A stretch of DNA of 64,000 nt from Omnitrophica WOR_2 bacterium GWF2_43_52 (GCA_001805445.1 MHGF01000022.1:74613-138612); one strand, 5' to 3'. Positions 8,799 to 29,760 are shown, numbered from the stretch's first letter. Notes: generated by a model from the letters alone, not told the origin. A program made the numbers and translations.

Positions 8799-9092
8799 CT
8801 ACGGATGTGGGGTTATGGCAGCGACACTTATTTGATTCTTTCGCGGCCCATAATACCAAAATATACGATACGCGCCAGGAGTAGAAGCTTGAGCATATGC
8901 CTCAAAAACTTTTTCTCCATGCGGCCCTTTAAGGCTTGTGAATTCATGCGTATTTAAACTCGGATGGCGAAGGTTGTGCTGCATCAGGGCTAGAGTTTTT
9001 TTGACTGCCTTCTCAATCTTCCTGCGAGAACGATCGTTTTCAAGCGCGGTTAACTGTTCTTGCGCCGTATCCGTAAGAACAATTTCATTCAT
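8799..9092 (-). CDS. type II toxin, RelE/ParE superfamily
   Basis: 97 aa. The C-terminus ...YRIFWYYGPRKNQISVAAITPHP is typical of RelE/ParE-fold toxins. The 8-nt overlap with the upstream antitoxin gene is typical of TA operons. Confidence 0.6.
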   Translation of the reverse strand: MNEIVLTDTAQEQLTALENDRSRRKIEKAVKKTLALMQHNLRHPSLNTHEFTSLKGPHGEKVFEAYAQASTPGAYRIFWYYGPRKNQISVAAITPHP

Positions 9093-9369
9093 TATCTTGC
9101 AAATGTTTAGACATATCCGGTAATTTATGCTTGGGTTTTTCGCTTAAACCACGCTTAACGCTGGATAAGGCCGCGGCATTCTTATAAAGCCACGCTTCAT
9201 GTTCTGGAACAGCCACCATAGGCTCAAGGACAATCTTGCCGGCGATTATTTCAGCATTATAAAGAGTAACCTTTAATTTTCCTGCCTTTATAATTTTACC
9301 TAATGGAATACGTTTGCGTTCATCTAACGACAATAACATGGGGAACTCCTCCTTTTTCGCTCGCTCCAT
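9085..9369 (-). CDS. AbrB/MazE/SpoVT-family antitoxin
   Basis: 94 aa. The looped-hinge-helix-like segment IPLGKIIKAGKLKVTLYNAEIIAGKIVLEP. The gene sits immediately upstream of the toxin and overlaps it. Confidence 0.55.
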   Translation of the reverse strand: MERAKKEEFPMLLSLDERKRIPLGKIIKAGKLKVTLYNAEIIAGKIVLEPMVAVPEHEAWLYKNAAALSSVKRGLSEKPKHKLPDMSKHLQDNE

Positions 9370-9427: not shown

Positions 9428-12400
9428 TTATACTTTATCCGATTCCAGGGCAATAAGCAATCCCTTTAGGGAGGGTTCGGTGGCAGGCAATTTTTCATCC
9501 TCTTCCTCGCGCCGAAGGATATCGGCAAGCATAGCGCGAACCTGGTCTATTCTCTCTTCAGAGAGCGGACTGGCCACAGCTGCTGCCGTGTATTCGCCAA
9601 TGCGCTGGACAGACGGCCGGATCCCGGCGTTAAAGACAGCTTGAATTTGAGACCATTCTTTATCCAAATCCGACTTAGGGGTTATAGACAGCGGCCTAGA
9701 GACTAAAGACTGGAGACTTTGAATTTGCTGGGTTTGGATAGGTAGGGCGGCAAAATCGATGCCACCCTTGTCATCGCTGACTGATGAGGAGCTTGTTGAA
9801 TCCAAACTAATCTTATATACACCACCTTCATCAGAATAAATAATCACGGTTGATTCATTAATTACTTCTATCTTTTCTGGAATAATTGACAAACATGGCC
9901 AAACATTCAGGCTATTACTCGCAAAACGAATTGGCTTACCAACATAGGCAGAGGTCATAGGATCCCATAATTCTCCTTTGAGCTTTGTATTCGGCCTTAC
10001 TCCTTTTAATTCTTCTTTCTTCCAAAAAGTATTATTTTCGTCACTTCCACCGACTAATTCTAACGTGACTTTTGCATCCTCTTTAAATTTCTCGAAAACT
10101 TCTTCCTTAGATACGTTTCCTTTCTCTGGTTCCAACAAATAATTATATTGCTTACCAAAAAACAGCACGTTTCCTAAATGCTTAGCCACCTCGGCGAACC
10201 TGCCTAAAGAAGGCTTACAGGCACGTGCAGAATTAAAAAGATATTCTGCCCCTGCCACTGCTACTGCCTCTTTGGGTGTAGTTTTCCAATATTGCGTATA
10301 TCTTTTCAAGGCAACATTTGCATCTTGATATTTAGAATCGTTCTTCAATTCTTCATAACTATCTTCGCCCACGTAACACACCAGCCTTCCGCCATCTTCT
10401 CGATACACCCAATCTCCGTAATTAAAATCGCGAATCTCAGTATAATTCCCTTTTAACTCTCTTTTCAGCTCATCTAATGTCTTCAACTTGCCATTATGAA
10501 ACGCGCCGTAAAACCCAGCTTTGCGGGTAATCTCAATCCACGCATCAAAAGACACTATCGGATTGCTATTCTTATCGCTTGAAAGTGATATTTTATGCAT
10601 AATCTCATGCCAAAATGTTTTGGCCAAGTCTATGAAATTATTCTCATTCCGGACACCATTGATAAATATCGTATGGACTGTTTTTTGGCCAACCCACCCC
10701 CCAGCATTAACATCCAGCTCCGCAAAATCTATTTTTATGGGTATTTTTATCTTTCCCAGCAAATCTTTCGGAAACGATCCTAATATCTTTCTTACGTCTC
10801 CAAAACGTGATGGTGCCACATAAGAGAGAAATTCTATGTTTAATCCTTCCCTTATATCTCGCACTAACAAGAGATAACCCTCAAGGTCTTTTATGGTTTG
10901 CGAGTTATCAATTTTTCTCATACTGCCTAATTCAGACAATATCCTGCTTAACTTCTGAGAATCAATCCGACCGGACGTCTCAAATAGACCCTGTTCATTC
11001 TCTATATATAAATGCACCAGTTCTACCACATATTCATTAAATTCCGACCCTTTACTTTTAAGTATTTTCCCTAACAACTCTTTAGGGGACATCTTCTTTA
11101 TAGCCACTGCTTCCAAAAAATAAGTTTCCTTTATATGTTTAAGGAAAGACACATAATCTCTTAGACCAACCAACGCTACCAGCCTTTTCCTTTCCTTTCT
11201 TATTTCAGCTTCCGGCAATTCTGTATTTATCTGAACAATTACGTTATTTAACACATCCAGATTTATCTCATCGCTTTCCTTATTATCCTTCTGCTTAAGA
11301 TACTTAGCGATGTATTCTTTTATACCGTCATTCAGCCTTCCGGCACCTATATTCTTTTTTATAATCCATTTCACAAAATCTTCAAGAGATAACTCCCTTA
11401 ATTTTTCTGGTGAAGCTGCATATTTATCAAAATCGTGCTTTTCAAAACCTGCATTTCCCACCGCCGAGCTGGCGGAGGAACCATCTATAGGCAAATTAAT
11501 AATTTGTTTCCTTTCTACAGCTGAACTTACAGATAATAATTTACCTATTCCCCTATTATCTCTAACATTAGACAAATTAATCGCGCTTGTTTCATTAGGC
11601 ATAGTAAATGTTTCTTCTGTCATTACGTTAGTTAATGTAGCTGGCTTATAGTTATACTCAGCCATTACAAATTCTTCTCCGTCATGCCAATCTATAAAAA
11701 TCTTAGTCCCTTCATAACCCTCAGGCATATCACCAGTAAAACCAATCCAGAGATCTCTTTTTGTTTTTAGATTCTGGGCATAAAGAACATTCTCACCAGG
11801 GTCATATAGATATTTAAAATTCTCTTTATCCTTATCTTCACACACTTTCAGCTTGAAGGTGGCATGGGTTATAGGGTTAGTAACTTCTATTGTTCCATCG
11901 GCTCGCAATTCACTAAGTAGCCCCTGCCGCATTCTTAGTAAATGCTGCTCTCGCTCCTTCACTGTTTTTTCTTCTCCACCGGTGTCCTCAGAATAAAACG
12001 AGCAACCTCGAAAAATAGTGCGAAAAGGAGTTATATCTATGCCAGCCTCTATAAATTCTTTTTTCAACTCTGCTATAAACTGTGTGAGAAGAAAAGGAGA
12101 ATTTCTATACCTTGAAAAATATTCCTGCCGATGGTCTTTTCGAGCCGCGTCTGTAGAAGGATAGATAATGTCCCACAACAACTTCGTCTGAGGCTTAGTC
12201 GAATGATCGTTATCCTTAATTTCAAGGCTGTCATGAATTATTCTAAACAAAAATCTTTGTAATTCTGAAACCTTCAAGTCACTTGAAAGTAATCGGTCGC
12301 TATTAATGTCTTCTATCACTTTCTTAATATCACTCATTGTAATTGTGTTACCCCATTCCAGCTTTACGTCTGCGGAATCCTCTACCGCCGAGCTGGCGGG

Positions 12401-15400
12401 GGCAGGAGCACCTGTAGATTCATCTTGAAGCGGCACACCCCATAAATTAAGCACCTTTTCTATATCTCGAATATATTCTTCACCAATCTCTTTTTTAGGA
12501 TCGAGTTTAATCCGATCCTTTATTTTCTCTATTTGATCCCTCCAAGCCTTTATACGTGTTTCTAACTCGCCTATTTCAGAAGCAAATTTAAGTTCTTCTT
12601 CTAATATTCTCGGATGGGCATGTTGAAAAAAAAAGTTAAAGTCAGAATCAATAGCCCCTCTTTCTACAAATTTTTGCTCAAGTAATTCATGTAAAAATAC
12701 AGATTTTGTAGGAGAAATGCCTAATTCCTGACAAAACGCATGATAAGCCGCGGGAGAATAATATATGCCCTCCTTCTGGACAGACGGATGAAACATCCAT
12801 ACAATGGATGGTATGGATTCTGGGGCCATATATCTTGTAGCTTTTTCAATTTCATCCCATACTTTGCCTGCGCCACCCGCTAATTCCCTAACTCTTTTGA
12901 TCAATTCCGCAGATGCCCTATCCAACATAAACATCGTAATTCCTATTTTTACCTTAAAAACTCCAATTTCTTCTATAAATTTTTCAAGAGTCATTTTCCT
13001 AATTTTATCCTTGGAACCTATTTTGTTTTCAAGATATTCTGCGGTATCCTTCACCGCAGAATCTATTACATTGGAATCGGGTTTAGCCTTAGGCTGATTA
13101 TGAGCGCTGGCCATCTCCATTTGACTCACTACCTCTGCGATATTACGACTCTTTAAAGCACCCCAGATGTTTTTAGCGTCCAAATTATCTTTACTACCGT
13201 TTGCCAAAGTTACCAGAGACAGCTCCTTAGGCTCTGGATTCCGTCCAAAAAAGCTCATCAAAGAAGAAGAAGCTACTTTTTCTTTTTCACTTATTTCTTC
13301 CACCGCCGAGCTAGGCACATTATTATATGATTTTTCGCTATTGATACTATTTGTTCGATTTAAACCAACCCTTCTTACCATATCGTCTTCGGTAGGTAAC
13401 CTTTTTCCATGAACCCAAAGGGTAAGTCCTGGGTTCTTCTCTGTTATCTCCTTTAGTGCCGACTGATAATCCGGAACAAACATTTTGGCTGTCCAGCCTT
13501 CATAACCATATCCGCCAAAATAATCCAGATTAGTTACTTCTACTTTTTCTGAACTCTTTTTTACAAATATCAATTTTTTAGAATACTCGGCAAAAACTTT
13601 CTCTGCCTGATCCCTGAGAAATTCAGGGACTAAAATATAGTCTATATCTTCAAAACTGACTTCCTGAACACTCCAAGCTAAAGCACCACTTTTACCCGTA
13701 AGCAAGCCTATATCTTTCTTCTTAATAGTGTCAAATTGAGAGACAAAGAGAACAGAATGCATAACCCGCTCCTCCATCATTTCAGATAGAAGGCCATATC
13801 CATGAAGCAAACGTAAATCTTCCCCGTATCTTTCTGTAACAACTGGTAATACCGCATTGCCGTCGCGTCCATTATATAATGCGTCATAGGAAGTATTCAT
13901 AAATCCATTTCTTATTCCTTCTTTAGCCAATTCCTCTACATCTTCCAAAGATAATCCGGGGAGTCTATAGCTCTTATATATTTCCCCTGTTTGCTTAATG
14001 ATTACATTCCATGTCGTGCCATCATCTCCTTTCTCTAATGACAATGTAGGATTGATTATGACCCCATAAACTATAGGTGCTGGCGTTCGCGAGGATAGCG
14101 ACGTATCAACACGCAAACCTCCTCTTTTAATTTGCTCAAGTTGATAAACAATCTCGTCTCCGACCCGTTTCGAAATAAAAAATCCTAATTGCCTGCCTAA
14201 TGCCTTTGGAGATGACAACATACTCAAATCTACAGATAGAAGATAACTCAAAGATTGACCGCTGTGCCCGGTAACAGGATTGAATCTATCCATAATTATT
14301 CTATTTACCCTATATTCCCAATTATTAGCTGGAGATGTAAATTGAGAAACCGCCTTATCAATAAATATTGCCAGATTTTCTTTTCCTGCCCACTGAGCAT
14401 AATCTTTAAAAAGCTCTTCTAAATAGCTTAATCCTGCCACATCATTATTTTCTGTCCGCATAAATCTAACAACATCCTCTCCAGAGGTGCCAATACCAGC
14501 TGCCTTTCCTATGATTGTTGCTACACCATATTTGTTCAACGCTTCTGCAAATATTTTATAAGACTGCTCAATAATTGAAGATGAAGCTCTATCAGTTGCA
14601 AAGGACTCTATTAAAAATTTAGTTCTCGGAGGACTAATTGTCTTAGCAGGAATCTTAGAGATTGCGCTGCTAACTTGTTCCGTTCCAAACATCATCCCCC
14701 CGCTCATATACTTGCGGATACTCTGGCCCATAGGAGTATATATCGGCTCAGTGAGGTTGTATTCGCCATCTTGGAATGATTTCTGGTATTGCTGGAAGTA
14801 ATCTTGCTTGTCATACAGTTCTTTAGAAACCAAATTAGTCAAAGCCCCGGAATCTATGAGCTTGAAGTAATCATTGGCTTTTTCTGTCCTCTGTTCCCTG
14901 TTCTCTGTCATCTGCGAGCGAAAGCGAGCTTTAAACCACTGCGCCAAGATGAGCGAATAATACACCTGCCGAAGAGAAGCGTATCTCTTTGAGGTATTCA
15001 CCTGATAGGTAAGCTTAGGGATTACCAATTCTCTGATAAGCTGGGTAGAATATTCATTGAGCTCCTTTAGCCTTGGATCTTTGAAACTATAATTTATTAT
15101 CGTCCCTCGTCCTTCATCCTTCATCCCTCGTAAATAATCCTCCTCCAGCATCACTTTTAGGGTTGCTTTGTATATGTACGCATTATCAGGGGCTTCTCTG
15201 ATGATTATCTCATTGGGCACTATCCAGGGGCGGGTTAAGGTGGGTATGGTAATATTCTCCGTTCCAAATAATTCTTCTGCTTTCTTATAGAGTTTATCCC
15301 AGTAAACTTTTCCTTCAGGGTCTTGGGGTGAAGTAAAGTTTGCGGTGTCCTTCTTTAGCTGGACATCTGCTTCTAAGAATATCCTGCCGATATCAGTCAT

Positions 15401-15868
15401 TGCTACGTCATCATCTATGATGTTATCCGGTGAATCCGGCCTTAGGTTTACCCAGAATTTATCATTAGGCAGGCTTAAGCCGATAAAGAAGTATTTCAAT
15501 AGCTCTTTGGTAGCATTATTGAGCTCATTAGCTGGTGAGCTGGTTAGCTCATTAGCTAAATGGTTATCAAATTTAGTATCTCCTTTGTCTAACAATAGCT
15601 GAAAGTCATTGCTTTGGCTATCGTAGGAGATGTACCTTAGATGTAAGGGACGGAATTTGTCTTGGGGGATAACCGCATTACGGGCTTGGTTAAAGTAACC
15701 AGAAATATCCAGAGTCTGGGCTACTTGGGCAAAGCTGGTTTGCTCAAAGATAAGGCAGAAACAAAAGAAAAAATGGGCTATGCGCCCGCCACACTGCCTT
15801 GGCGGGCGTCCGCCTATGCTTTGTGGTGGACGTTGTGCGTTATGAGTCATGTCGAATACGATAGGCAA
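9428..15868 (-). CDS. giant multidomain protein A (2146 aa) of unknown function, sharing N- and C-terminal modules with the 26062-29616 paralog
   Basis: Single uninterrupted ORF. The first ~430 aa are ~85% identical to paralog B. The C-terminal ~100 aa (GGIDFAALPI...TEPSLKGLLIALESD) resemble the B C-terminus. An internal HExxH motif (FWHEIMHKISL) is present. The SSAVE linker motif recurs four times. The N-terminus has a long charged region before a hydrophobic stretch, IAHFFFCFCLIF. Confidence 0.8.
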   Translation of the reverse strand: MPIVFDMTHNAQRPPQSIGGRPPRQCGGRIAHFFFCFCLIFEQTSFAQVAQTLDISGYFNQARNAVIPQDKFRPLHLRYISYDSQSNDFQLLLDKGDTKFDNHLANELTSSPANELNNATKELLKYFFIGLSLPNDKFWVNLRPDSPDNIIDDDVAMTDIGRIFLEADVQLKKDTANFTSPQDPEGKVYWDKLYKKAEELFGTENITIPTLTRPWIVPNEIIIREAPDNAYIYKATLKVMLEEDYLRGMKDEGRGTIINYSFKDPRLKELNEYSTQLIRELVIPKLTYQVNTSKRYASLRQVYYSLILAQWFKARFRSQMTENREQRTEKANDYFKLIDSGALTNLVSKELYDKQDYFQQYQKSFQDGEYNLTEPIYTPMGQSIRKYMSGGMMFGTEQVSSAISKIPAKTISPPRTKFLIESFATDRASSSIIEQSYKIFAEALNKYGVATIIGKAAGIGTSGEDVVRFMRTENNDVAGLSYLEELFKDYAQWAGKENLAIFIDKAVSQFTSPANNWEYRVNRIIMDRFNPVTGHSGQSLSYLLSVDLSMLSSPKALGRQLGFFISKRVGDEIVYQLEQIKRGGLRVDTSLSSRTPAPIVYGVIINPTLSLEKGDDGTTWNVIIKQTGEIYKSYRLPGLSLEDVEELAKEGIRNGFMNTSYDALYNGRDGNAVLPVVTERYGEDLRLLHGYGLLSEMMEERVMHSVLFVSQFDTIKKKDIGLLTGKSGALAWSVQEVSFEDIDYILVPEFLRDQAEKVFAEYSKKLIFVKKSSEKVEVTNLDYFGGYGYEGWTAKMFVPDYQSALKEITEKNPGLTLWVHGKRLPTEDDMVRRVGLNRTNSINSEKSYNNVPSSAVEEISEKEKVASSSLMSFFGRNPEPKELSLVTLANGSKDNLDAKNIWGALKSRNIAEVVSQMEMASAHNQPKAKPDSNVIDSAVKDTAEYLENKIGSKDKIRKMTLEKFIEEIGVFKVKIGITMFMLDRASAELIKRVRELAGGAGKVWDEIEKATRYMAPESIPSIVWMFHPSVQKEGIYYSPAAYHAFCQELGISPTKSVFLHELLEQKFVERGAIDSDFNFFFQHAHPRILEEELKFASEIGELETRIKAWRDQIEKIKDRIKLDPKKEIGEEYIRDIEKVLNLWGVPLQDESTGAPAPASSAVEDSADVKLEWGNTITMSDIKKVIEDINSDRLLSSDLKVSELQRFLFRIIHDSLEIKDNDHSTKPQTKLLWDIIYPSTDAARKDHRQEYFSRYRNSPFLLTQFIAELKKEFIEAGIDITPFRTIFRGCSFYSEDTGGEEKTVKEREQHLLRMRQGLLSELRADGTIEVTNPITHATFKLKVCEDKDKENFKYLYDPGENVLYAQNLKTKRDLWIGFTGDMPEGYEGTKIFIDWHDGEEFVMAEYNYKPATLTNVMTEETFTMPNETSAINLSNVRDNRGIGKLLSVSSAVERKQIINLPIDGSSASSAVGNAGFEKHDFDKYAASPEKLRELSLEDFVKWIIKKNIGAGRLNDGIKEYIAKYLKQKDNKESDEINLDVLNNVIVQINTELPEAEIRKERKRLVALVGLRDYVSFLKHIKETYFLEAVAIKKMSPKELLGKILKSKGSEFNEYVVELVHLYIENEQGLFETSGRIDSQKLSRILSELGSMRKIDNSQTIKDLEGYLLLVRDIREGLNIEFLSYVAPSRFGDVRKILGSFPKDLLGKIKIPIKIDFAELDVNAGGWVGQKTVHTIFINGVRNENNFIDLAKTFWHEIMHKISLSSDKNSNPIVSFDAWIEITRKAGFYGAFHNGKLKTLDELKRELKGNYTEIRDFNYGDWVYREDGGRLVCYVGEDSYEELKNDSKYQDANVALKRYTQYWKTTPKEAVAVAGAEYLFNSARACKPSLGRFAEVAKHLGNVLFFGKQYNYLLEPEKGNVSKEEVFEKFKEDAKVTLELVGGSDENNTFWKKEELKGVRPNTKLKGELWDPMTSAYVGKPIRFASNSLNVWPCLSIIPEKIEVINESTVIIYSDEGGVYKISLDSTSSSSVSDDKGGIDFAALPIQTQQIQSLQSLVSRPLSITPKSDLDKEWSQIQAVFNAGIRPSVQRIGEYTAAAVASPLSEERIDQVRAMLADILRREEEDEKLPATEPSLKGLLIALESDKV

Positions 15869-15877
15869 TGCCAGGCA

Positions 15878-15940
15878 TAAACAAGTATCATTTTTACTTG
15901 ACTATGCCTGGCATTGTGCGGGGCTATTAGCTACCTAAAA
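15878..15940. repeat. AATGCCAGGCATA ... TATGCCTGGCATT hairpin element (14-bp stem, ~24-nt loop) in the giant gene A leader
   Basis: Inverted repeat seen directly. Near-identical copies at 29625-29680 and, with a short loop, at 20698-20735. Confidence 0.65.
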
Positions 15941-16082
15941 TATACTATATTTTAAGCCCAAAACAAGGCTAAAACAGGGGGTTTGGGAAAGCGCTTTCTG
16001 CAACCGCAGATTACGCGGATTTTGAAAAAAACAAGTCCGCGGATTGCGCAGATTGAAAGGGACGGTTGTTCCTATATATAGT

Positions 16083-16168: not shown

Positions 16169-16528
16169 ATGTTATTAAATAGTTACAGCTATGCCCTACT
16201 TTTTTTGGCCGCGGGCACAGTCTTTGTCTTGGCCGCGTTTGTCACCTCATGGATTTTAAGGCCAAGCAAGCCAACCAAAGAAAAAATTACCCCCTACGAA
16301 TGCGGGGAATTTACTACAGGGACAAGCTTTGTCCAATACAATGTCCGCTACTATATTTTCGCCCTGATTTTCGTGGTTTTCGATGTGGAAGTGGCATTTT
16401 TACTCCCCTGGGCGGTTATTTTTAAAGACTGCGGGGCATGGGCATTCTTAGAGGCCGCGGTATTTATCTTTATCTTATTGGTAGGGCTGTTTTACGCTTT
16501 AAAGAAGAAGGCATTAGAATGGGTCTAA
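16169..16528 (+). CDS. nuoA: NADH-quinone oxidoreductase subunit A
   Basis: 119 aa with three TM helices. Conserved YECGE and FDVE motifs. Confidence 0.9.
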
Positions 16529-17037
16529 TACAAAAACTGCCTCTATTTACCGAAAAGATTCCCGGAGGCCAAATCATTCTCTCCGCCACAGACTTTATCC
16601 TCAACTGGGCAAAGGAATCAAGTCTCTGGCCGATGTCATTCGGGCTTGCCTGCTGCGCGATTGAGATGATGGCAGCCGGAGCTTCCCGTTATGACTTAGA
16701 CCGTTTTGGCGCCGGCGTCTTCCGCGCTACTCCCCGCCAGTGCGACCTGATGATTGTTGCCGGCACGGTAAACCAGAAGATGTCTAAACGGCTTCGCCTT
16801 CTTTATGACCAGATGCCTGAGCCCAAGTATGTCCTGGCAATGGGCAGCTGCGCGATTTCCGGCGGCCCTTATTATTATGATAGCTATAACGTAGTAAAAG
16901 GCGTGGATCAGGTGGTCCCCGTGGATATCCATGTTCCCGGGTGCCCTCCCCGGCCCGAAGCGCTCCTCTTTGGCATTATGAAACTCCAGGAAAAAATCAA
17001 AAAATCAAGCCTTAAAGACGAAATTACCAAAAAATAG
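16519..17037 (+). CDS. nuoB: NADH-quinone oxidoreductase subunit B (20 kDa, N2 cluster)
   Basis: In-frame ATG at 16519 (MGLIQKL...). The track ORF starts earlier and overlaps nuoA. Motifs [14 protein letters not shown] and GCPPRPE. Confidence 0.9.
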
Positions 17038-17038
17038 C

Positions 17039-17482
17039 ATGGCTGACGCAATAGCAACTTTAAAAACTAAATTTCCCGCGATTACCGAAGAGGCAAATAC
17101 CCAATGCCTTATTCTTGAAAGCAAAGATATCAAAAATGCCTGCCGCTTCCTCAAAGAAAACTTAAGCTTTGAACAATTAGCCTGTATATCCGCTATAGAT
17201 TATAAGGACAAATTTGCCATAGCGTATAACCTCTATTCTTACACAACTAGAGAAAAAATCACTCTCAAGGTATTCTTGGATAAAAATAACCCCTCTGTAG
17301 AAAGCATCACTCCCCTATGGAGCGCGGCGAATTGGCATGAACGGGAGGCCTTTGATATGATGGGAATTACCTTTACCGGGCACCCGGATTTACGGCGCAT
17401 ACTCTTGCCCGACGACTGGCAGGGATACCCTTTAAGAAAAGAGTATACCAATGAAAACTTTGTCCGCATGCCTTCTATTTAG
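17039..17482 (+). CDS. nuoC: NADH-quinone oxidoreductase subunit C (30 kDa)
   Basis: 147 aa. The conserved ERE.FDM.GI.F.GHPDLRR.L motif. Confidence 0.85.
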   Translation: MADAIATLKTKFPAITEEANTQCLILESKDIKNACRFLKENLSFEQLACISAIDYKDKFAIAYNLYSYTTREKITLKVFLDKNNPSVESITPLWSAANWHEREAFDMMGITFTGHPDLRRILLPDDWQGYPLRKEYTNENFVRMPSI

Positions 17483-17492
17483 TTAGTGCTGA

Positions 17493-17572
17493 AAAACTAA
17501 TTTCCACACAAATTAACACGAATAGATTTGTGGGAATTCGATAAAAATTCGTGGGAATTCGTGTTATCAAAT
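17493..17572. repeat. MITE-like ACACGAATT-family element between nuoC and nuoD
   Basis: The sequence aacacgaatagatttgtgggaattcgataaaaattcgtgggaattcgtgtt has half-sites in both orientations. Confidence 0.6.
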
Positions 17573-17605
17573 ACCTTTTTTAGTGGAAACTATTTAAAAC
17601 ACTCT

Positions 17606-18760
17606 ATGGACCTTCAAATACACACTGAAAATTTAGGCACACAAAATAAACCTCAAGCCGCTTTTGAAACAGAAGACTTTGAAGTCAGCTTTGGCCCGCA
17701 GCATCCCTCAACCCACGGGGTTTTACGCCTGCAATTAACCCTTGACGGTGAAGTCGTGATTGGCTGTGTACCCCATATAGGCTACCTCCACAGGGACTTT
17801 GAAAAAATCTGCGAAAACAGGACCTATACCCAAATTATTCCCTACACCGACCGCCTTGATTATCTGGGGGCAATGAACAATAACTTTGGTTATTGCATGG
17901 CGATAGAAAAATTAATGGGCCTCGCGATTCCTGAGCGCGCGGACTATATCCGGGTGATTATCGCGGAATTAAACCGCATTGCCAGCCATCTTTTGGCTGT
18001 CGGGACATTCGTTCAGGATTTAGGCGCGTTTGGCACTCCCCTGCTTTATTGCTTTCGCGAAAGAGAAAAAATCCTGGATATCTTTGAAAGCACCTGCGGC
18101 AGCCGACTTACCTATAATTATTACCGCATAGGAGGGGTATCCGCGGACATCCCCGCTGATTTTCAAAAAAAGGTAAAAGAATTTATAGATTATTTTAAGC
18201 CAAAACTCAAAGAGTATGAAGACCTAATGCCTCTTAATGCTATACTTCTGGTGCGCACCAAGGGTATCGGAATACTCAGCAAGGAAAAAGCGCTTGCCTA
18301 TGCTGTAACCGGCCCTAACTTGCGGGCAAGCGGAGTCAAATTTGACTTACGAAAGGAAGAGCCTTATTCTATCTATCCCCGTTTTGAATTTGACATTCCC
18401 GTAATAACTACCGGGGACACCTGGGATAGGCTCAGAATAAGAATGGATGAACTCTACCAGTCTCTGAGGATTATTGAACAGGCTATAGATAACATCCCGC
18501 AGGGAGAACATATTGCCAAGGTGCCAAAAATCTTAAAACCTCCGGCAGGTGAAATTTACTTCAGGTCAGAAAGCCCGCGCGGTGAGTTAGGATTTTATGT
18601 AATCAGTGACGGCTCAACTAAGCCTTACCGGCTAAAATGCCGGGCGCCGTCTTTCTGTAATCTGGCGGTGATTTCGGATTTAGTCAAAGGAGTAAAAGTA
18701 GCTGATGTCATTGCCATTCTGGGAAGCCTGGATGTAGTATTAGGCGAGATTGATCGATAA
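17606..18760 (+). CDS. nuoD: NADH-quinone oxidoreductase subunit D (49 kDa)
   Basis: Likely true start MDLQIHTEN at 17606. The track start at 17528 lies inside the repeat element. Motifs GPQHPSTHGVLRL and RAPSF.NL. Confidence 0.85.
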   Translation: MDLQIHTENLGTQNKPQAAFETEDFEVSFGPQHPSTHGVLRLQLTLDGEVVIGCVPHIGYLHRDFEKICENRTYTQIIPYTDRLDYLGAMNNNFGYCMAIEKLMGLAIPERADYIRVIIAELNRIASHLLAVGTFVQDLGAFGTPLLYCFREREKILDIFESTCGSRLTYNYYRIGGVSADIPADFQKKVKEFIDYFKPKLKEYEDLMPLNAILLVRTKGIGILSKEKALAYAVTGPNLRASGVKFDLRKEEPYSIYPRFEFDIPVITTGDTWDRLRIRMDELYQSLRIIEQAIDNIPQGEHIAKVPKILKPPAGEIYFRSESPRGELGFYVISDGSTKPYRLKCRAPSFCNLAVISDLVKGVKVADVIAILGSLDVVLGEIDR

Positions 18761-18765
18761 CCGTA

Positions 18766-18816
18766 ACAACCTACGAGGTTGAAATTTTCAACCTCGTAGG
18801 TTGTTATATGGACGTA
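18766..18816. repeat. perfect 20-bp-arm palindrome aacaacctacgaggttgaaa/tttcaacctcgtaggttgtt between nuoD and nuoH
   Basis: Read directly. Shares the CAACCTACGAGGTTG core with the hairpin at 5507-5533. Confidence 0.65.
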
Positions 18817-18825
18817 TAACATAAA

Positions 18826-19797
18826 ATGATGGATTTACCGTTTATTCTAAATTTTCTTCTGATGTGCGCTAAGGCCGCGGGGCTGCTTGGTTTTGTCAGC
18901 ATATCGGTCATGTTTCTTATCTGGTGGGAACGTAAAATAAGCGCGCACATCCAATCCCGCTTAGGGCCAATGATTGTCGGCTGGCATGGCGCTCTTCAAA
19001 CTATCGCTGATACCCTAAAGCTGCTTCTTAAAGAAAACATCGTCTGTAGAGAAGCGGATAAACTCACTTTCTGGCTCGCGCCGCTGGTTGTCTTTGTGGC
19101 AAGCTTTCTTCCTTTTGTGGCTATCCCTTTTAGCAAAAATCTGATTGCGCAAGACTTACCTTTAGGGTTGCTCTATATTTTAGCGGTAAGCAGTGTCGGT
19201 GTCATCGGCATTTTTATGGCCGGATGGGGCTCCGGCAATAAATATTCTCTGCTTGGAGGGATGCGCACCGCGGCCCAAATCATCAGCTATGAAATCCCGC
19301 TTGTGCTTTCCATCCTTCCTATTGTGATGATGACCGGCTCTCTGAGCATGAATACAATTATCGGAGCCCAGAAAAATGTATGGTTTATCTGTTACCAACC
19401 CATCGCGTTTTTGATATATTTTATATCGGCGATTGCCGAGGTGAACCGCGCGCCTTTTGATATTGCCGAGGCCGAGTCGGAATTAGTCGCCGGATTTCAT
19501 ACGGAATATAGCGGAATGAAGTTTTCCATGTTCTTCTTGGCCGAATATACCAATATGTTTGTAGTGTCGGTTATCGCCACCACCCTCTTTTTAGGAGGAT
19601 GGCAAGGGCCATTATTACCGGGAATCGCCTGGTTTTTATTAAAAGTTTACTTCCTGATTTTTGTGATGATGTGGATACGCTGGACATTCCCGCGGCTGCG
19701 CGTAGACCAGCTGATGGATTTCGCTTGGAAATTCCTTATGCCTTTGGCATTTTTGAATATATTGGTTACCGCGCTGGTAATGGCGCTCATAAAATAA
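18826..19797 (+). CDS. nuoH: NADH-quinone oxidoreductase subunit H
   Basis: 323 aa polytopic membrane protein. Motifs WERK and PFDI.E.ESEL..GF..EYSG. Confidence 0.9.
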   Translation: MMDLPFILNFLLMCAKAAGLLGFVSISVMFLIWWERKISAHIQSRLGPMIVGWHGALQTIADTLKLLLKENIVCREADKLTFWLAPLVVFVASFLPFVAIPFSKNLIAQDLPLGLLYILAVSSVGVIGIFMAGWGSGNKYSLLGGMRTAAQIISYEIPLVLSILPIVMMTGSLSMNTIIGAQKNVWFICYQPIAFLIYFISAIAEVNRAPFDIAEAESELVAGFHTEYSGMKFSMFFLAEYTNMFVVSVIATTLFLGGWQGPLLPGIAWFLLKVYFLIFVMMWIRWTFPRLRVDQLMDFAWKFLMPLAFLNILVTALVMALIK

Positions 19798-19799
19798 CG

Positions 19800-20207
19800 A
19801 TGAAAGAATTTTTTGAGTATACGGCAAGTTTAATCAAAGGCTTAGGCGTAACGCTTAAATATCTCTGCAGGCCCGCGGTTACTTTGCAATACCCCAAACA
19901 AAGATGGACCCCGCCTGAACGCTACAGGGGGAGGGTCGCGCTTCGCCCTAAAAAATGCATCTCCTGCCAGATGTGCGCGCGGGCGTGCCCTAACAATTGT
20001 TTAGAAGTTAAATTTAACGTAGGCGACGATAAAAAAAGGAAACTTACCGAATTTGTGTATCATATAGACACCTGTTTATTCTGCGGGCTTTGCGCTGAAC
20101 CCTGCCCGACGTCCGCGATATTTATGAACCATGATTACGAGCTCGCGGTTTGTGACCGTAAGGATTTGATTGTAGACTTGGTAAAGGTTGATAGTTATGT
20201 GGAGTAA
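19800..20207 (+). CDS. nuoI: NADH-quinone oxidoreductase subunit I (2 x [4Fe-4S] ferredoxin)
   Basis: In-frame ATG at 19800 (MKEFFEY...). Two CxxCxxCxxxCP motifs: CISCQMCARACP and CLFCGLCAEPCP. Confidence 0.85.
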   Translation: MKEFFEYTASLIKGLGVTLKYLCRPAVTLQYPKQRWTPPERYRGRVALRPKKCISCQMCARACPNNCLEVKFNVGDDKKRKLTEFVYHIDTCLFCGLCAEPCPTSAIFMNHDYELAVCDRKDLIVDLVKVDSYVE

Positions 20208-20697: not shown

Positions 20698-20735
20698 TGC
20701 CAGGCATACTACTTGTGTATGCCTGGCATTAAGAA
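20698..20735. repeat. short-loop copy of the AATGCCAGGCATA hairpin between nuoJ and nuoK
   Basis: The sequence taatgccaggcata-ctacttgtg-tatgcctggcatta is read directly. Confidence 0.65.
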
Positions 20736-20744
20736 AATTATAAG

Positions 20745-23075: not shown

Positions 23076-23080
23076 AAATT

Positions 23081-26061: not shown

Positions 26062-29000
26062 TCAGTTATGAGGGTTCACTACTATTCGGCTTAAGGCAAG
26101 CTGTACTTCTTGGGCAGGATTATCTGACTCAAGCGCGATAAGGATTTGTTTTAAGGCGGGCTCGGTGGGAATAAACTTTTGCTCCTGCGCGCGTAAAATT
26201 TCGGCGATATGGGTAATGACAACTTCTATCTGCTCACTGCTTACCGCTGACGATTGGCTTGCCGTATAGGCCATATCGCGTATGCGCGCGGTTGCGGGGA
26301 TAAAATCATTCTTGAGCATCACTTCAATCTGCCGGCACTCCTCGTCAAAATTAATATTCAGGCTTATGGGCGCAGAACCAAACATAGAAAGTTGATTCCC
26401 TAGAGCTGGCTGCGCGGTTATAGGCAATGCGCGTAAGTCTATACCTCCCACATCATGAACTTTTTCATTAAGGGGCGAGGAATTCGCTATTGCGGCGATA
26501 CCGCCATGATCTGCTAAATATGTTAAAAGCCCTTTATAATTTGTAAACTTATTTTCTTTAACAATTCTCGCAATATTTTCTATGGGCAAAGCTTCTAAAA
26601 TGCTAAAGAGTGTTTGCCTCGTGCCGCCAATTTCCTTTAACAAAGGAATAATCGTATCCGGATTCTTCGCGCGGGCAAACATATCCAGGAAATTCTCAGG
26701 GATATTATGAATATTTTGTTTTGGTTTTTTTAAATAATTAGACACTATTTCTCTGATTGTTTTGCTCTCCACTTCACTCATTTCATCTACAATTCTCTTT
26801 ATCTCTTCCCTTGATTTATCATCAACGGTCATGTCAGGGAATTCCAACATCAAGCGTACACACCTAAATATAGTATCTAACTTTAATAAACGATTTGTTC
26901 CATGGCGCGACACGGCAGGAATAAGGCTAAGGCGTTTTTGTATAATATCTTCGGCATAATCTCCTCCCGCGCTACTTGTAACTACCCAACCGCTCGTATC
27001 CTTATGAACGATAAGCCTGTTAAGGGAAAAATCACGCAAAATATCTACTTTGGCATATAGTTCATCTTCGTAAAGGAATAATTCTTCAGAATCAGGGTCC
27101 TTACCAAGGTTAAGGACATGCAAAGGGGTATCTTTAAATTTTATCCTTGTCATATCCTCTATAAAATAAATAATCTCACTTACCGATCGCACTTTGCTCT
27201 TATCATAACCCCTAATAACAATATCAATATCTGCCGCTCTCAAAGACGGCTTTATCCCTGTAACCATTTTCCGCGCTATCCCTCCCGCAAACCCAAAGTA
27301 TACTCCTTTTTTTTCTAACTCGTTTGTAATATATAAGATATCCTCGTCCACGGCTATATTAATTCCTCGGTTTTCTTTTCTTTCTGAATCTTCCAGCCGT
27401 GCAAGTTGAAATGATTTTCCATCTACCTCCACCACCGAGCTGGCAGCTGATATTGAAACACATCCTCCTACATAACTTTGCTCTGGCCGTGTATGAAAGC
27501 CATATTTTTTTAATTGAGCTATATCGCCATCTGGCAAATGCCCTATGAATTCCTTTGACTGATAACCTCCTAAAATAATCTTGTCAATTCTAATGTTACG
27601 ATCTTTAATCATGTTTAATATAAGGCCAACGCTGGTCAAGTTAGTTACCGGCCCATAATCACCAGGCCAAGTTCCGATGTTGCTTATTAAGACAATGCTA
27701 TCTTTTATCTCAGGGATTTTTGGCATAAGTGTATCTTTATTCGTCAAATCTCCGGCAATACACCAAAAATGCACACCTTCCCTAAACTTGTTAGCCTCAA
27801 AATGTTGCCTTGCTTTGTTCAAAGAGGCTTCATCATTATCTATAAGTATGGCCTGGGAAGCCCCCAGCTTAAGCGCCGTCAAAGCAAGCAGTCCGTCTCC
27901 GGATCCGGAATCAATAACACACTTTCCTGCGATATTGCTATTCAGCATTAAAAGTATAGTCGCAGAAGTGAAAAGCTTCATCCTGCCGCCTTTTTCCTCC
28001 GATTCACCAATCGTGGAGTCAGATAAATCCGATACAACAATAGCTCTTTCTTTCAAGGCAGCGCGTAACTCCAAATCTTTCTCTAAATCCTCATACACTT
28101 CCTTGTCTATAAAAAACAAACCTCCGATCTTAACCAAATCATATCCTTGATGATTATCTTTGACTCTTACCAATAAAGTTGCCTGCTCTATTCCATTGTA
28201 AGTTACACTATCATCAATTTCCCTTTGAGCATGAATGTAATACTTTCTCTCCCCGCCAACCCCTTTAATTGCTTTCAATTCTTTCTCTATGCGCTGCCAA
28301 AGCTGTTTTTCTAAATTCGTAAGATACTTTATCGGGTAAGCATATGCGTCATTCATTATTTCTGGCATATCTTTTTTTGCTGGTATCATTGTAGTCACAG
28401 CCGAACTACTCATAAATCCTTCTATTCCTCCGCTCAGATACCTACGAATATTTTGGCCATAAGGGGTATAGACTGGTTCTGTAATATTATATTCGCCATC
28501 TTGGAATGATTTCTGGTATTGTTTAAAGTATTCTTCTTTATCATAAGGCTCTTTTGAAGTGAGGTTAGTCAAGTCTCTTGAATCAATAAGCTTACTATAG
28601 GGGTTATCCGGTTTACCGGTAAGCGAGTTAACCGGTTTACTGGCTAACCCGTTCACCGGCACACTAAATTTATTCTTAAACCACTGCGCCAATATAAGCG
28701 AGTAATACACTTGCCTAAGAGAAGCATATCTCTTTGAGGTATTCACCTGATAGGTGAGCTTAGGGATTATCAATTCTCTGATAAGCTGGGTTGAGTATTC
28801 ATTGAGCTCCTTTAGCCTGGGGTCTTTGAAATTGTATTGCTGCTGGCTGACAGCTGAAAGCTGAAAGCTTTTCAGATAGTCTTCTTCAAGCATCACTTTT
28901 AGCGTTGCCTTGTAGATATAAGCATTATCTGGGGATTCCCTGATGATGATTTCATTGGGCACGATCCAAGGACGGGTTAAGGTAGGTATAGTAATATTCT

Positions 29001-29616
29001 CTGAACCAAATAATTCCCCCGCCTTCTTATAGAGCTTATCCCAATATTGTTTGCCTTCTGGGGTCTGGGGTGAAGTAAAGTTCGCGGTATCCTTCTTTAG
29101 CTGGACATCCGCCTCTAAGAATATCCTGCCAATATCAGTCATTGCCAAGTCATCATCTATGATGTTATTTGGCGAATCCGGCCTTAGGTTGACCCAGAAT
29201 TTATCATTAGGCAGGCTTAAGCCTATGAAGAAATACCTGAGTAAATTTTGAGTCTCACCTTCAAGGGCTTTTTCTTGTTTCTCTGGTGACGTGGTGACCT
29301 GGTGACGGGGTGACTCTTTTAAGAAATCCCCTTTATCTACAAGAAGCTTAAAATCATTGCTTTGGCTATCGTAGGAGATGTATCTTAAGTGCAGTGGACG
29401 AAATTTATCTTGGGGAATAACCGCGTTACGGGCTTGGTTAAAGTAACTGGAGATATCCAGCGTCCGGGCTACTTGGGCAAAGACTGGCTGTTCAAAGATA
29501 AGGCAAAAACAAAGGAAAAAATGGGCTATGCGCCCGCCACACTGCTTTGGCGGGCGTCTGCCTATGCTTTGTGGCGGACGTTGTGCGTTATGAGTCATAT
29601 TGAATATGATAGGCAA
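26062..29616 (-). CDS. giant multidomain protein B (1184 aa): conserved N-module, class I SAM-methyltransferase-like motif, Pol-beta-type nucleotidyltransferase-like motif and conserved C-module
   Basis: The N-terminal ~430 aa are ~85% identical to giant A. The central segment VIDSGSGDGLLALTALKLGASQAILIDND is a GxGxG SAM-binding-like motif. GFAGGIARKMV...AADIDIVI fits the hG[GS]x9-13Dh[DE]h nucleotidyltransferase signature. The C-terminus GGIDLRALPI...TEPALKQILIALESD matches A. Confidence 0.75.
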   Translation of the reverse strand: MPIIFNMTHNAQRPPQSIGRRPPKQCGGRIAHFFLCFCLIFEQPVFAQVARTLDISSYFNQARNAVIPQDKFRPLHLRYISYDSQSNDFKLLVDKGDFLKESPRHQVTTSPEKQEKALEGETQNLLRYFFIGLSLPNDKFWVNLRPDSPNNIIDDDLAMTDIGRIFLEADVQLKKDTANFTSPQTPEGKQYWDKLYKKAGELFGSENITIPTLTRPWIVPNEIIIRESPDNAYIYKATLKVMLEEDYLKSFQLSAVSQQQYNFKDPRLKELNEYSTQLIRELIIPKLTYQVNTSKRYASLRQVYYSLILAQWFKNKFSVPVNGLASKPVNSLTGKPDNPYSKLIDSRDLTNLTSKEPYDKEEYFKQYQKSFQDGEYNITEPVYTPYGQNIRRYLSGGIEGFMSSSAVTTMIPAKKDMPEIMNDAYAYPIKYLTNLEKQLWQRIEKELKAIKGVGGERKYYIHAQREIDDSVTYNGIEQATLLVRVKDNHQGYDLVKIGGLFFIDKEVYEDLEKDLELRAALKERAIVVSDLSDSTIGESEEKGGRMKLFTSATILLMLNSNIAGKCVIDSGSGDGLLALTALKLGASQAILIDNDEASLNKARQHFEANKFREGVHFWCIAGDLTNKDTLMPKIPEIKDSIVLISNIGTWPGDYGPVTNLTSVGLILNMIKDRNIRIDKIILGGYQSKEFIGHLPDGDIAQLKKYGFHTRPEQSYVGGCVSISAASSVVEVDGKSFQLARLEDSERKENRGINIAVDEDILYITNELEKKGVYFGFAGGIARKMVTGIKPSLRAADIDIVIRGYDKSKVRSVSEIIYFIEDMTRIKFKDTPLHVLNLGKDPDSEELFLYEDELYAKVDILRDFSLNRLIVHKDTSGWVVTSSAGGDYAEDIIQKRLSLIPAVSRHGTNRLLKLDTIFRCVRLMLEFPDMTVDDKSREEIKRIVDEMSEVESKTIREIVSNYLKKPKQNIHNIPENFLDMFARAKNPDTIIPLLKEIGGTRQTLFSILEALPIENIARIVKENKFTNYKGLLTYLADHGGIAAIANSSPLNEKVHDVGGIDLRALPITAQPALGNQLSMFGSAPISLNINFDEECRQIEVMLKNDFIPATARIRDMAYTASQSSAVSSEQIEVVITHIAEILRAQEQKFIPTEPALKQILIALESDNPAQEVQLALSRIVVNPHN

Positions 29617-29760
29617 TGCCAGGCATAGTCAAGTGAAAATGACACTTGTTTATGCCTGGCATTGTGCGGGGCTATTAGCTACCTAAAATATACTACATTT
29701 TAAGTCCAAAACAAGGCTAAAACAGGGGGTTCGGGAAAGCGCTTTCTAATGAGGCCACAA
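29617..29760. promoter_or_regulatory. duplicated leader and promoter region of giant gene B, near-identical to 15869-16010 upstream of giant gene A; contains the AATGCCAGGCATA hairpin
   Basis: Nucleotide-level near-identity between the two regions, seen by direct comparison. The hairpin copy at 29625-29680 lies inside it. Confidence 0.6.

Follow-up and report, generated by a model that had tools for sequence, protein, structure and literature searches.

Two Omnitrophica proteins with common termini and different cores on either side of a nuo operon, and the multicopy family to which they belong

In the MARTX toxins of Vibrio and its relatives, conserved N- and C-terminal regions flank interchangeable effector domains, the linkers serve as processing sites, and the sets recombine between paralogues and strains. 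The cargo of type IX secretion carries a Sec signal together with a conserved C-terminal sorting domain, which is a beta-sandwich. Microsporidia secrete hexokinases, the parasite placing a secretion signal on an enzyme of glycolysis, presumably so that it acts on the metabolism of the host.

According to passages of two surveys, the long proteins of Omnitrophota tile many enzyme domains, mostly with signal peptides or transmembrane (TM) helices, and type II secretion and Tad loci are found nearby (10.64898/2026.06.07.730766; 10.1101/2023.11.21.568195). Signal peptides or TM helices were assigned to 94% of these proteins in the passages of one survey (10.64898/2026.06.07.730766), and the same sources read them as host-/prey-directed or membrane-associated (West-Roberts et al. 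2023, 10.1101/2023.11.21.568195; 10.64898/2026.06.07.730766). The family described here, of which two genes, A and B, were analysed in detail, comes from the same phylum and likewise joins unrelated enzyme or repeat domains (methyltransferase, radical SAM, HEAT, TPR, sugar metabolism) in one polypeptide with a predicted signal peptide. It differs in size and make-up, as the published catalogue, in the passages concerned, has a cut-off of >= 10,000 aa, whereas A and B measure 1.2-2.1 kaa and lack TM helices, and their family includes proteins of about 350 aa consisting of the head domain only. The passages on long proteins in those sources make no mention of a 345-aa head domain, a GGID/helical tail or an SS[P/A]x linker motif.

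Genes A and B and their shared ends

Two open reading frames of 2146 and 1184 aa, first noticed in a sequence-only reading, were confirmed on the minus strand of the window (the whole 64,000-nt stretch of DNA that was analysed), in which tblastn detected no further copies. As that reading described, the pair flanks a nuo operon, which consists of 11 genes on the plus strand (nuoA-B-C-D-H-I-J-K-L-M-N). The true start of both genes is probably the ATG at codon 7 (window positions 15850 and 29598), the start that gene callers chose in other assemblies. The genes and their shared parts are as follows.

9428..15868, minus strand: ORF A, 2146 aa from the listed TTG, 2140 aa from the probable ATG at 15850
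15869..15998, minus strand: upstream region of A, near-identical to that of B, with promoter-like hexamers and leader (alignment of both upstream regions)
15866..15916, minus strand: leader hairpin of A, 15 + 6 bp, with about 14 nt between its end and the ATG
15728..15850, minus strand: predicted Sec-type signal peptide of A, residues 7-47 (by inspection)
14696..15727, minus strand: N-module of A, residues 48-391, the head domain conserved across the family
9431..9766, minus strand: C-module of A, residues 2035-2146, GGIDFAALPI motif and helical bundle
26062..29616, minus strand: ORF B, 1184 aa from the listed TTG, 1178 aa from the probable ATG at 29598
29617..29746, minus strand: upstream region of B, common to A, with the leader hairpin at 29614-29664
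28426..29598, minus strand: predicted signal peptide (residues 7-47) and N-module (residues 48-397) of B
26065..26448, minus strand: C-module of B, residues 1057-1184

The N-terminal block (residues 1-413 of A, 1-418 of B) was aligned by BLASTP with 314 of 421 positions identical (75%; positives 83%; E = 0), so the shared block is real, but the identity of about 85% over some 430 aa that had been claimed for it is too high. A common C-terminus had also been proposed and was recovered as a block of about 137 aa with 39% identity (BLASTP, E = 1e-15), which spans both motifs quoted for it, GGID..ALPI and TEPxLK..LIALESD. Between the terminal blocks, no significant BLASTP alignment was obtained for the two cores (best E 0.04), in keeping with the claim that the central regions differ completely.

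At the DNA level, the shared block begins about 130 nt 5' of the start and continues to about nt 1150 within the gene, with an identity of 80-95% outside three variable loops; in the identity profile, values of 0.8-0.95 are reached from about -135 onwards. Within this genome, the 5' ends of the two genes, promoter and leader included, have been duplicated or homogenised. The leader RNA of A folds with -40.9 kcal/mol over a 121-nt stretch (z = -5.2), and that of B with -42.4 kcal/mol (z = -6.8). In the alignment, the inner stem-loop of the A leader hairpin reads as inverted relative to the copy 5' of B.

Assembly chimerism is ruled out for both genes, as both recur in several independent assemblies. 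For ORF A, NCBI DMEX01000009.1 has a gap-free copy with 100% identity and an independent ENA assembly one with 99.97% identity, and the exact 1178-aa product of B is found on 20 contigs from NCBI, ENA and JGI assemblies.

The N-module is a confidently modelled alpha/beta domain of about 345 aa, whose model has no fold match among PDB or viral structures and which has no Pfam or NCBIfam match at E <= 1. The adenovirus penton base (crown insertion) was considered as a candidate and rejected on sequence and fold similarity. In the predicted structure, the C-module consists of a disordered GGID[FL]xxLP motif and, after it, a small bundle of four helices, for which no Pfam or NCBIfam model matched; the fold of this module is generic. 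The termini had been called unassignable to any known family, and indeed Pfam, NCBIfam, PDB sequences and PDB folds offer no described family for them. A characterised domain family at the termini, or chimeric ORFs, had been named as grounds for giving up the proposal, and neither was found. The C-module ends 46 of the 85 extracted family genes (complete genes >600 aa number 51). Proteins made up of the N-module only (about 350 aa) are encoded on long contigs (P0118 and P0006), which suggests an independent role for the head domain.

A shuffled family and its cargo

A and B are members of a large, undescribed multicopy family, found only in Omnitrophota among the records that name a phylum. 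A search for paralogues gave 352 protein matches and 428 genomic matches confirmed by tblastn, with at least 16 family genes in the single MAG JAUSCZ01. All phylum-naming records are Omnitrophota/Omnitrophica, the exceptions being seven from ENA with the title 'uncultured Planctomycetales' and a few whose title says only 'bacterium'; the likeness to modular giant genes of uncultivated lineages, which had been pointed out for the pair, fits this distribution. Shared termini and swapped cores are a family-wide architecture, in which a Sec-type leader is followed by the N-module, one to many unrelated cargo modules and the C-module. Complete members reach about 3300 aa, and several of more than 3700 aa are clipped at the locus limit. 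The family cargo includes methyltransferases, Metallophos, HEAT, PP2C, GNAT, FHA, TIM, FBA-II, radical SAM, TPR, PGK and enolase, and one protein bears GAPDH, TIM, PGK and iPGM together. The cargo of A and B is arranged as follows.

13313..14584, minus strand: cargo segment 1 of A, residues 429-852, with ASSSII and PSSAVE junctions, without detected relatives
12395..13312, minus strand: cargo segment 2 of A, residues 853-1158, without detected relatives
11480..12394, minus strand: cargo segment 3 of A, residues 1159-1463, with ASSAVE and VSSAVE/SASSAVG junctions, without detected relatives
10151..11131, minus strand: HExxH module of A, residues ~1580-1906, motif WHEIMHKISLSS at 10595-10609
27442..28410, minus strand: cargo segment 1 of B, residues 403-725, PrmA-type class I SAM methyltransferase, matched core 27766-27966
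26467..27441, minus strand: cargo segment 2 of B, residues 726-1050, probable Pol-beta-type nucleotidyltransferase (motif region 27151-27339), then a region without family match

No Pfam domain was found in ORF A, and one or two were found in ORF B. Segments 1-3 of A (about 1000 aa) have no Pfam match and no homologue in the family or database. The HExxH motif noticed in A occupies residues 1754-1758, and the module around it is 37-38% identical to modules of two family members (L045 and L074), with 16 relatives among 1.84 billion representatives and a conserved WHExxHK.S.SS motif. HExxH itself is kept throughout the three aligned modules of the family and in 12 of the 16 relatives from the database. 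The module matches no Pfam family and no PDB sequence; judged from its motif, it is putatively zincin-like. Neither Peptidase_C80 nor another protease family of Pfam or NCBIfam was matched in A or B.

For B, the methyltransferase-like motifs that had been noticed were borne out by a match of residues 561-617 to Pfam PrmA (PF06325; E 2e-8 for the whole protein, 4e-9 for the segment), which scores 36.8 bits against a curated cut-off of 22 and covers only positions 159-215 of the 296 in the profile. A motif I of GxGxG type, VIDSGSGDG, is located in the region of residues ~550-700. At residues ~760-822, the nucleotidyltransferase signal is weak (MdcG, E 0.017, below cut-off; a phage NTase family, E 0.04), and a nucleotidyltransferase-type motif FAGGx13DIDIV, FAGGIARKMVTGIKPSLRAADIDIV, was recognised by inspection; segment 2 is a probable candidate for a Pol-beta-type nucleotidyltransferase.

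Modules are shuffled among family members. The methyltransferase module of B is 46% identical to the core of another member (L002_14600), whose C-module is of the A type, and the HExxH module of A occurs at differing positions in four others (L045, L074, P0193 and P0199). The linkers between modules are disordered in the models and bear SS[P/A][V/I/L], with a density of 0.92 per 1000 aa in the family versus 0.045 in flanking ORFs (about 20-fold; 89 observed versus 5.5 expected). Speculatively, this motif may be a site of processing or modification.

According to the sequence-only reading, the cassette-like architecture recalls polymorphic toxins or effectors; a polymorphic toxin or contact-dependent competition system would have exchanged toxic domains and cognate immunity genes. 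As in CdiA, Rhs, LXG and MafB proteins, a conserved N-terminal part is joined to exchangeable enzymatic parts, several paralogues occur per genome, modules are exchanged, and two small overlapping ORFs (8799-9369) directly follow A on its 3' side. However, these ORFs have no relatives beside any other family gene and no family match, B has no small downstream gene because nuoN comes next on the opposite strand, and across 79 loci no recurrent small neighbour and no consistently adjacent secretion, protease, immunity or partner gene was found, the recurring neighbours being housekeeping genes. Unlike in polymorphic toxins, the variable part is internal, whereas A, B and 46 other family genes all end in the conserved C-module; no match to a toxin or PADLOC entry or to a domain for trafficking (TPS, LXG, PAAR/Rhs) was obtained, barring the generic methyltransferase; and the cargo is not toxin-like but includes housekeeping enzymes such as TIM, PGK, GAPDH and aldolase. 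The polymorphic-toxin reading fails its defining tests and is largely refuted, and such a competition system is very improbable for this family.

Leader, cofactors and possible destinations

The leader of A has an Arg-rich n-region, a hydrophobic core of about 12 residues and a cleavage-like site between SFA and Q (by inspection), and all 85 extracted family genes open with M..K/R..hydrophobic..F(E/Q)QxGFAQ. By the same inspection, the three parts of a Sec signal, namely a positive n-region, a core of 7-15 residues and a small-x-small site, are present in A, B and the 85 family genes. A hydropathy scan of A and B found no 19-residue window at mean Kyte-Doolittle >= 1.5, leader included, and thus no TM-length segment; a core of only about 12 residues is of the length usual in signal peptides and falls short of a TM helix. 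Export, which had been considered possible, is therefore plausible as a prediction from the canonical Sec-type leaders of family members.

We favour, at not quite an even chance, the reading that A and B are exported carrier proteins with swappable cargo, their localisation being predicted and the function of their caps inferred. The leader would send the unfolded chain through Sec, and both caps would act as common handling modules, recognised by a secretion, anchoring or delivery system common to all paralogues. Only the cargo would differ, with a zincin-like HExxH module and three relative-less modules in A and a protein-type methyltransferase and a nucleotidyltransferase in B. The cofactors on which the cargo depends (SAM, NTPs, NAD, Fe-S) are cytoplasmic, so that exported copies would most coherently be destined for a host or prey cell, either its cytoplasm or its surface; this agrees with proposals that Omnitrophota live in dependence on hosts. 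Against export, radical SAM, NAD-, ATP- and SAM-dependent cargo is unable to work in the periplasm, and an Fe-S enzyme exported unfolded via Sec would lack its cluster. The cofactor dependence fits delivery into another cell and a cytoplasmic location equally well. If the fused glycolytic enzymes are the sole copies in their genomes, an effector role is unlikely for those members.

A cytoplasmic location would correspond to a multi-enzyme scaffold or metabolon, possibly membrane-tethered, in which the leader is a short anchor that is not cleaved and the N- and C-modules assemble the paralogues into a common intracellular structure. This is possible, if on the unlikely side. Nearly all of the cargo is of a cytoplasmic, cofactor-dependent type (SAM methyltransferases, radical SAM, GNAT, PP2C/FHA signalling pairs), the GAPDH-TIM-PGK-iPGM or aldolase-TIM strings resemble a glycolytic metabolon, and the shortness of the hydrophobic core agrees with it. 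Proteins with the N-module only are as expected of a structural subunit, and the very high conservation of N-modules among paralogues and the homogenisation of A and B suit co-assembly. However, the leader has all three Sec parts, with positive charges before the core and the small-x-small site after it, and signal peptides or TM helices were assigned to nearly all long Omnitrophota proteins in the survey passages quoted above.

Alternatively, the proteins might be exported but retained by the cell that makes them, in the periplasm or at the surface, where N-modules form or bind a surface layer and the cargo acts on external or host-derived substrates. The Sec-type leaders, the multicopy paralogues with one conserved head, the stand-alone form of that head, and HEAT and TPR repeats and peptidase-like cargo suited to binding or surface work are in line with this, but ATP-, NAD-, SAM- and Fe-S-dependent cargo would lack a cofactor supply outside the cytoplasm, and Pfam, NCBIfam and hydropathy revealed neither a membrane anchor or lipobox nor a known domain for binding cell walls. 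Such enzyme display in the envelope is quite improbable.

A bolder and unlikely extension of the carrier reading is that N-module and C-module constitute an unrecognised phylum-wide sorting or delivery system. The novel-fold head and the GGID tail would label dozens of paralogues in each genome for one exit route. Between head and tail would sit the enzyme cassettes, at most a complete lower-glycolysis string, which might be set free at SS[P/A]x, and the structured leader RNA would coordinate the paralogues. If this were true, Omnitrophota would carry out or impose some of central metabolism beyond the bounds of their own cytoplasm, for example in host or prey cells.

Comparison with known systems

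Like MARTX toxins, the A/B family has conserved termini that flank a recombining array of modules. Unlike them, A and B have no RTX glycine-rich repeats or HemolysinCabind-type match and no cysteine protease domain (Pfam), and they carry a Sec leader instead of a type I signal, come from another phylum, bear housekeeping cargo and have an alpha/beta domain and a helical bundle as caps. With type IX cargo, the family has in common an N-terminal Sec signal and a conserved C-terminal domain of about 100 aa on otherwise unrelated proteins of one phylum; it differs in its tail, a disordered motif and four-helix bundle that matched no Por secretion tail model, and in its large N-module. For the capped GAPDH/TIM/PGK/iPGM and aldolase behind Sec leaders, the secreted hexokinases of microsporidia offer a precedent as a functional analogy only, as that case is eukaryotic and concerns single enzymes with no shared caps. 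In the A/B family, a shared head and tail around interchangeable enzyme modules suggest a common system for handling or delivering enzymes.

ORFs A and B and their genomic setting

The window contains two long ORFs, here called A and B, with common ends and unlike cores:
9428-15868, minus strand: ORF A, 2146 aa
26062-29616, minus strand: ORF B, 1184 aa
BLASTP between the two proteins gave an N-terminal block of 421 columns (75% identity, 83% positives, E = 0) and a C-terminal block of 137 columns (39% identity, E = 1e-15), with no significant alignment between them. Coordinates, strand and the rest of the description in the sequence-only reading were correct, except that its ~85% identity for the N-terminus was too high. 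According to tblastn with either module over the 64 kb, A and B are the only copies in the window of the N-module (the head cap after the protein leader) and the C-module (the tail cap). DNA similarity begins ~130 nt 5' of the start codon and extends to ~nt 1150, with 80-95% identity except for three variable loops, so a promoter-like region and the leader lie within the common block. Gene calls in other assemblies start at the ATG at codon 7 of A and B, and the listed TTG is located inside the stem of a leader hairpin.

The possibility that A and B are assembly chimeras, raised in the sequence-only reading, was checked across assemblies and ruled out, both ORFs being intact in independent ones. 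Counted from the ATG, B encodes 1178 aa, and this product recurs without change on 20 contigs, in the same context each time; their sources are the NCBI MAG GCA_003451255.1 (DMEX01000009.1), re-assemblies at ENA of Rifle groundwater runs, and two metagenomes from JGI. In DMEX01000009.1 the DNA of A is gap-free and 100% identical; an independent assembly from ENA, with a called product of 2140 aa, has it gap-free at 99.97% identity. Runs of N were found inside A in two older scaffolds. ENA scaffold_5948, which belongs to the same population (L080:9866-9908), has a 10-N gap at window 10041-10050 (A residue ~1940); its contig end before the gap departs from the window after ...LELVGGS, with ERDTNINELIKT vs DENNTFWKK in the window, and the divergent sequence occurs nowhere else in the window. 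Strain variation in the 3' part of A could account for the divergence, and so could an error of assembly.

That of B is the nearest relative of the N-module of A (76%), ahead of any orthologue in other genomes, while the C-modules, only 39% identical to each other, are each nearer to tails from other genomes (62% to loci L001 and L004 for A, 47% to L009 for B). Taken with the common promoter and leader, this pattern suggests that the 5' part was duplicated or underwent gene conversion within this genome, and that cores and tails have been exchanged between members of the family, which consists of A, B and their Omnitrophota relatives.

The following genes lie beside A and B:
16169-25998, plus strand: nuo operon between A and B, 11 genes (nuoA, B, C, D, H, I, J, K, L, M, N), without nuoE, F, G (NADH-oxidising subunits)
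8799-9092 and 9085-9369, minus strand: two small ORFs directly 3' of A, 94 and 97 aa, with an 8-nt overlap
The gene content of the operon agrees with a preprint (10.64898/2026.06.07.730766), according to which nuoG is missing from all 176 of its complete Omnitrophota genomes and the full operon is found in none of them. The place of A and B beside nuo was not seen among related loci and is therefore probably incidental. The layout of the small ORFs is reminiscent of a toxin-antitoxin pair; they had no Pfam or NCBIfam match and no relatives beside other family genes. A cognate immunity or partner gene had been suggested as something to look for, and no secretion, protease or immunity gene recurs beside family genes in the related loci examined. 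The sole conserved neighbourhood is one orthologous position after dnaN-gyrB-gyrA-glmS-rsmI (names given by eye from the first residues), where these genes are located upstream of the family gene in L003, L010, L018, L020, and ~20 other loci; the family genes there form one orthologous group, mostly 2000 to >3700 aa in length.

Caps, cargo and linkers of the family

The N-terminal block as query matched 352 proteins; E-values for the 120 listed lie between 1e-109 and 1e-174, and wherever a source is named it is Candidatus Omnitrophota/Omnitrophica or unclassified bacteria. When one genome per species was scanned, 428 tblastn-confirmed genomic matches were obtained; among the 80 listed, all were Omnitrophota MAGs, except for seven 'uncultured Planctomycetales' (ENA) and a few with 'bacterium' titles. 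The family is strongly multicopy, with at least 16 genes in MAG JAUSCZ01 and at least six in another among the fetched loci, and further paralogues with common ends occur in related MAGs, where the sequence-only reading had proposed to seek them.

All of the 85 genes extracted from the fetched loci open with the leader M-(K/R-rich)-(12-15 hydrophobic)-F(E/Q)Q(S/T)GFAQ, and their products range from ~180 aa to >3700 aa, the upper end being the limit of the fetched locus. The hydrophobic core of the leader in A and B is only ~12 residues, a length in keeping with a signal peptide and insufficient to form a transmembrane helix; mean hydropathy is below 1.5 in every 19-residue window of both proteins. 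A C-module like that of A and B ends 46 of the 85 genes (51 are complete and >600 aa), with the consensus GGIDFRxLPIxTQ ... LDxEWxxIQ ... GIxPSxERIKEY ... CIADILRxEEE ... LKxxLVxLES. Head-only proteins of ~350 aa are encoded on long contigs (P0118 and P0006 from the protein search). Stand-alone C-module genes were considered and rejected, the short matches looking like pieces of longer genes with internal-Met starts.

Neither cap matched a Pfam or NCBIfam model at E <= 1 or an entry in the PADLOC or PHROGs copies searched, in line with the sequence-only reading, which could not assign the ends to any known family. An AlphaFold2 model of the N-module from 75 sequences is confident (mean pLDDT 80.6, pTM 0.78), with three beta-hairpins predicted to pack against six long helices; a Foldseek search of BFVD gave no match below E = 0.16, and the module appears to have a new fold. 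In the model of the C-module (pLDDT 72), a disordered segment with the almost unvarying GGID motif precedes a four-helix bundle, and the C-module fold search returned only designed helical bundles and TPR/PPR-like repeats, which are generic and uninformative. A single-sequence phmmer search of the N-module also matched the crown region of adenovirus penton base (E 1e-4, ~28% identity over 82 aa):
about 15281-15546, minus strand: penton-like stretch, A residues 108-196
This match was judged to be due to chance because family profile and fold searches give it no support.

Between its caps, B carries a class I SAM methyltransferase of PrmA type within residues 403-725 (PF06325, 36.8 bits vs a cut-off of 22), which bears out the methyltransferase-like motif noted earlier. 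It shares 46% identity with the core of L002_14600, a family member with an A-type rather than a B-type tail. The nucleotidyltransferase-like motif proposed for B was found as GGx13DxD at the opening of residues 726-1050, with weak MdcG and phage NTase profile matches; the start of this region is a probable Pol-beta-type nucleotidyltransferase. The HExxH motif of A lies in a module at residues ~1580-1906, in which WHExxHK.S.SS is conserved. The module recurs at varying positions in L045, L074, P0193, P0194, and P0199, and also in a few further long proteins with signal peptides. A search of 1.84 billion representative proteins yielded only 16 relatives of it. The module belongs to no Pfam family and may be a zincin-type peptidase. 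Residues 430-1463 of A have no relatives among family proteins and no Pfam match; a word-indexed large-database search also found none, a weak negative because the search missed the protein's own copies too.

Pfam searches on the post-head parts of 47 family members identified as cargo (the modules between the caps) several methyltransferase types, metallophosphoesterases, HEAT/Arm repeats, PP2C, GNAT, FHA, TPR repeats, radical SAM, class II aldolase, and triosephosphate isomerase (TIM, E = 1e-80), with phosphoglycerate kinase (PGK) or enolase in other members. Two members carry strings of glycolytic enzymes between head and tail, behind a signal-peptide-type leader:
L036:581-9904, plus strand: 3108 aa, with GAPDH, TIM, PGK, and cofactor-independent phosphoglycerate mutase
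L069:9941-17830, plus strand: two class II aldolase-like modules and TIM
Short linkers between the modules carry a recurring [AGSV]SS[PA][VIL] motif, whose density is 0.92 per 1000 aa in family proteins vs 0.045 in neighbouring ORFs; a related pattern was observed 89 times vs 5.5 expected from composition. In A and B it takes the form SSAV or SSSI and is present at every definable module boundary. The motif falls within segments marked as disordered by both structure models (N- and C-module), and could be a cleavage or glycosylation site.

Leader RNAs upstream of family genes

The leaders of A and B each form a strong hairpin:
15866-15916, minus strand: leader hairpin of A, 15 + 6 bp, ~14 nt before the probable ATG, z = -5.2
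29614-29664, minus strand: leader hairpin of B, 15 + 6 bp, ~14 nt before the probable ATG, z = -6.8
A and B have identical outer stems. Apart from 2 mismatches, reverse-complementing the inner stem-loop of A gives that of B, as would result from a flip of this segment.

Other Omnitrophota genomes have a different conserved leader RNA, which directly precedes at least 16 family genes on their own strand, five of these being paralogues from a single MAG. Its elements are a hairpin with a covarying stem and a loop that often reads UGGAGG, a UUGCCACGR sequence, and an intrinsic terminator that opens with GCCGGAUU; it ends 20-60 nt before the start codon. Its positions, on the same strand as the gene, are as follows:
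L079:9789-9910
L024:9808-9923
L053:5819-5938
L051:9793-9910
L022:9332-9465
L059:9772-9905
L064:9791-9924
L043:139-292
Weaker examples: L005, L058, L026, L015, L056, L077, L042, and L069
An nhmmer profile of this RNA gave 16 matches at E < 0.1, exclusively upstream of family genes, and three weaker ones (E 0.2-0.6) elsewhere; it was not detected in the window. Pair counts showed 81.6% paired vs 30-59% for slid controls, and 7 of the 11 pairs in helix 1 were changed on both sides. No Rfam family matched the leaders, whether in the window or in related loci. The RNA of other genomes may be an undescribed attenuator or riboswitch-type control common to the family. A group I intron and an RNase P RNA (Rfam; L056:16-285 and L056:2564-2934) are unrelated to A and B.

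Possible site of action and comparison with known systems

It is established that the family is modular and capped, with a leader of Sec type, two caps that are conserved, cargo that is shuffled, and a specific linker motif. We propose that the chain would be exported by the leader, that the caps would be recognised by a common cellular system for secretion, anchoring or delivery, and that the cargo would be each paralogue's own contribution. Since the cargo depends on SAM, NTPs, NAD, acetyl-CoA or Fe-S clusters, activity in the periplasm is difficult to envisage, leaving either delivery into another cell or the producer's own cytoplasm. In the latter case, the proteins would form a cytoplasmic scaffold with the leader acting as an anchor, a serious rival that accommodates these cofactor needs; however, the leader shows every signal-peptide feature, and we regard retention as the less likely option. 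Delivery into another cell is ranked first on leader features and by analogy with microsporidia, in which secretion signals are likewise attached to hexokinase. It is also favoured because Omnitrophota are thought to be host-dependent, with type II and Tad loci linked to their long proteins, according to two preprints (10.64898/2026.06.07.730766; 10.1101/2023.11.21.568195).

One family with dozens of paralogues in each genome, all having the same kind of head and tail around swappable enzymes, would provide a concrete handle on how Omnitrophota act on other cells. With the caps as a sequence signature, the full cargo repertoire of any Omnitrophota genome can be listed, and experiments on localisation, secretion, and structure have a defined target. 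The presence of glycolytic enzymes after signal peptides poses a direct, testable question on where central metabolism takes place in Omnitrophota, a widespread, very small, and mostly uncultured phylum thought to depend on hosts or prey.

No account of this head/tail family was found in the literature, and the passages searched in 10.64898/2026.06.07.730766 and 10.1101/2023.11.21.568195 gave no description of the head domain, tail or linker motif. The family fits the published long multi-enzyme Omnitrophota proteins in phylum and domain content, not in size, and the likeness to modular 'giant genes' of uncultivated lineages drawn in the sequence-only reading fits. The likeness to polymorphic toxins, drawn there too, was rejected, as the family lacks the defining features of such a system. 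Its closest likeness in architecture is to the MARTX toxins, in which special linkers and a recombining array of effectors lie between conserved ends. It also resembles type IX secretion cargo, which combines a Sec signal with a common C-terminal domain. The defining features of both are absent from the family.
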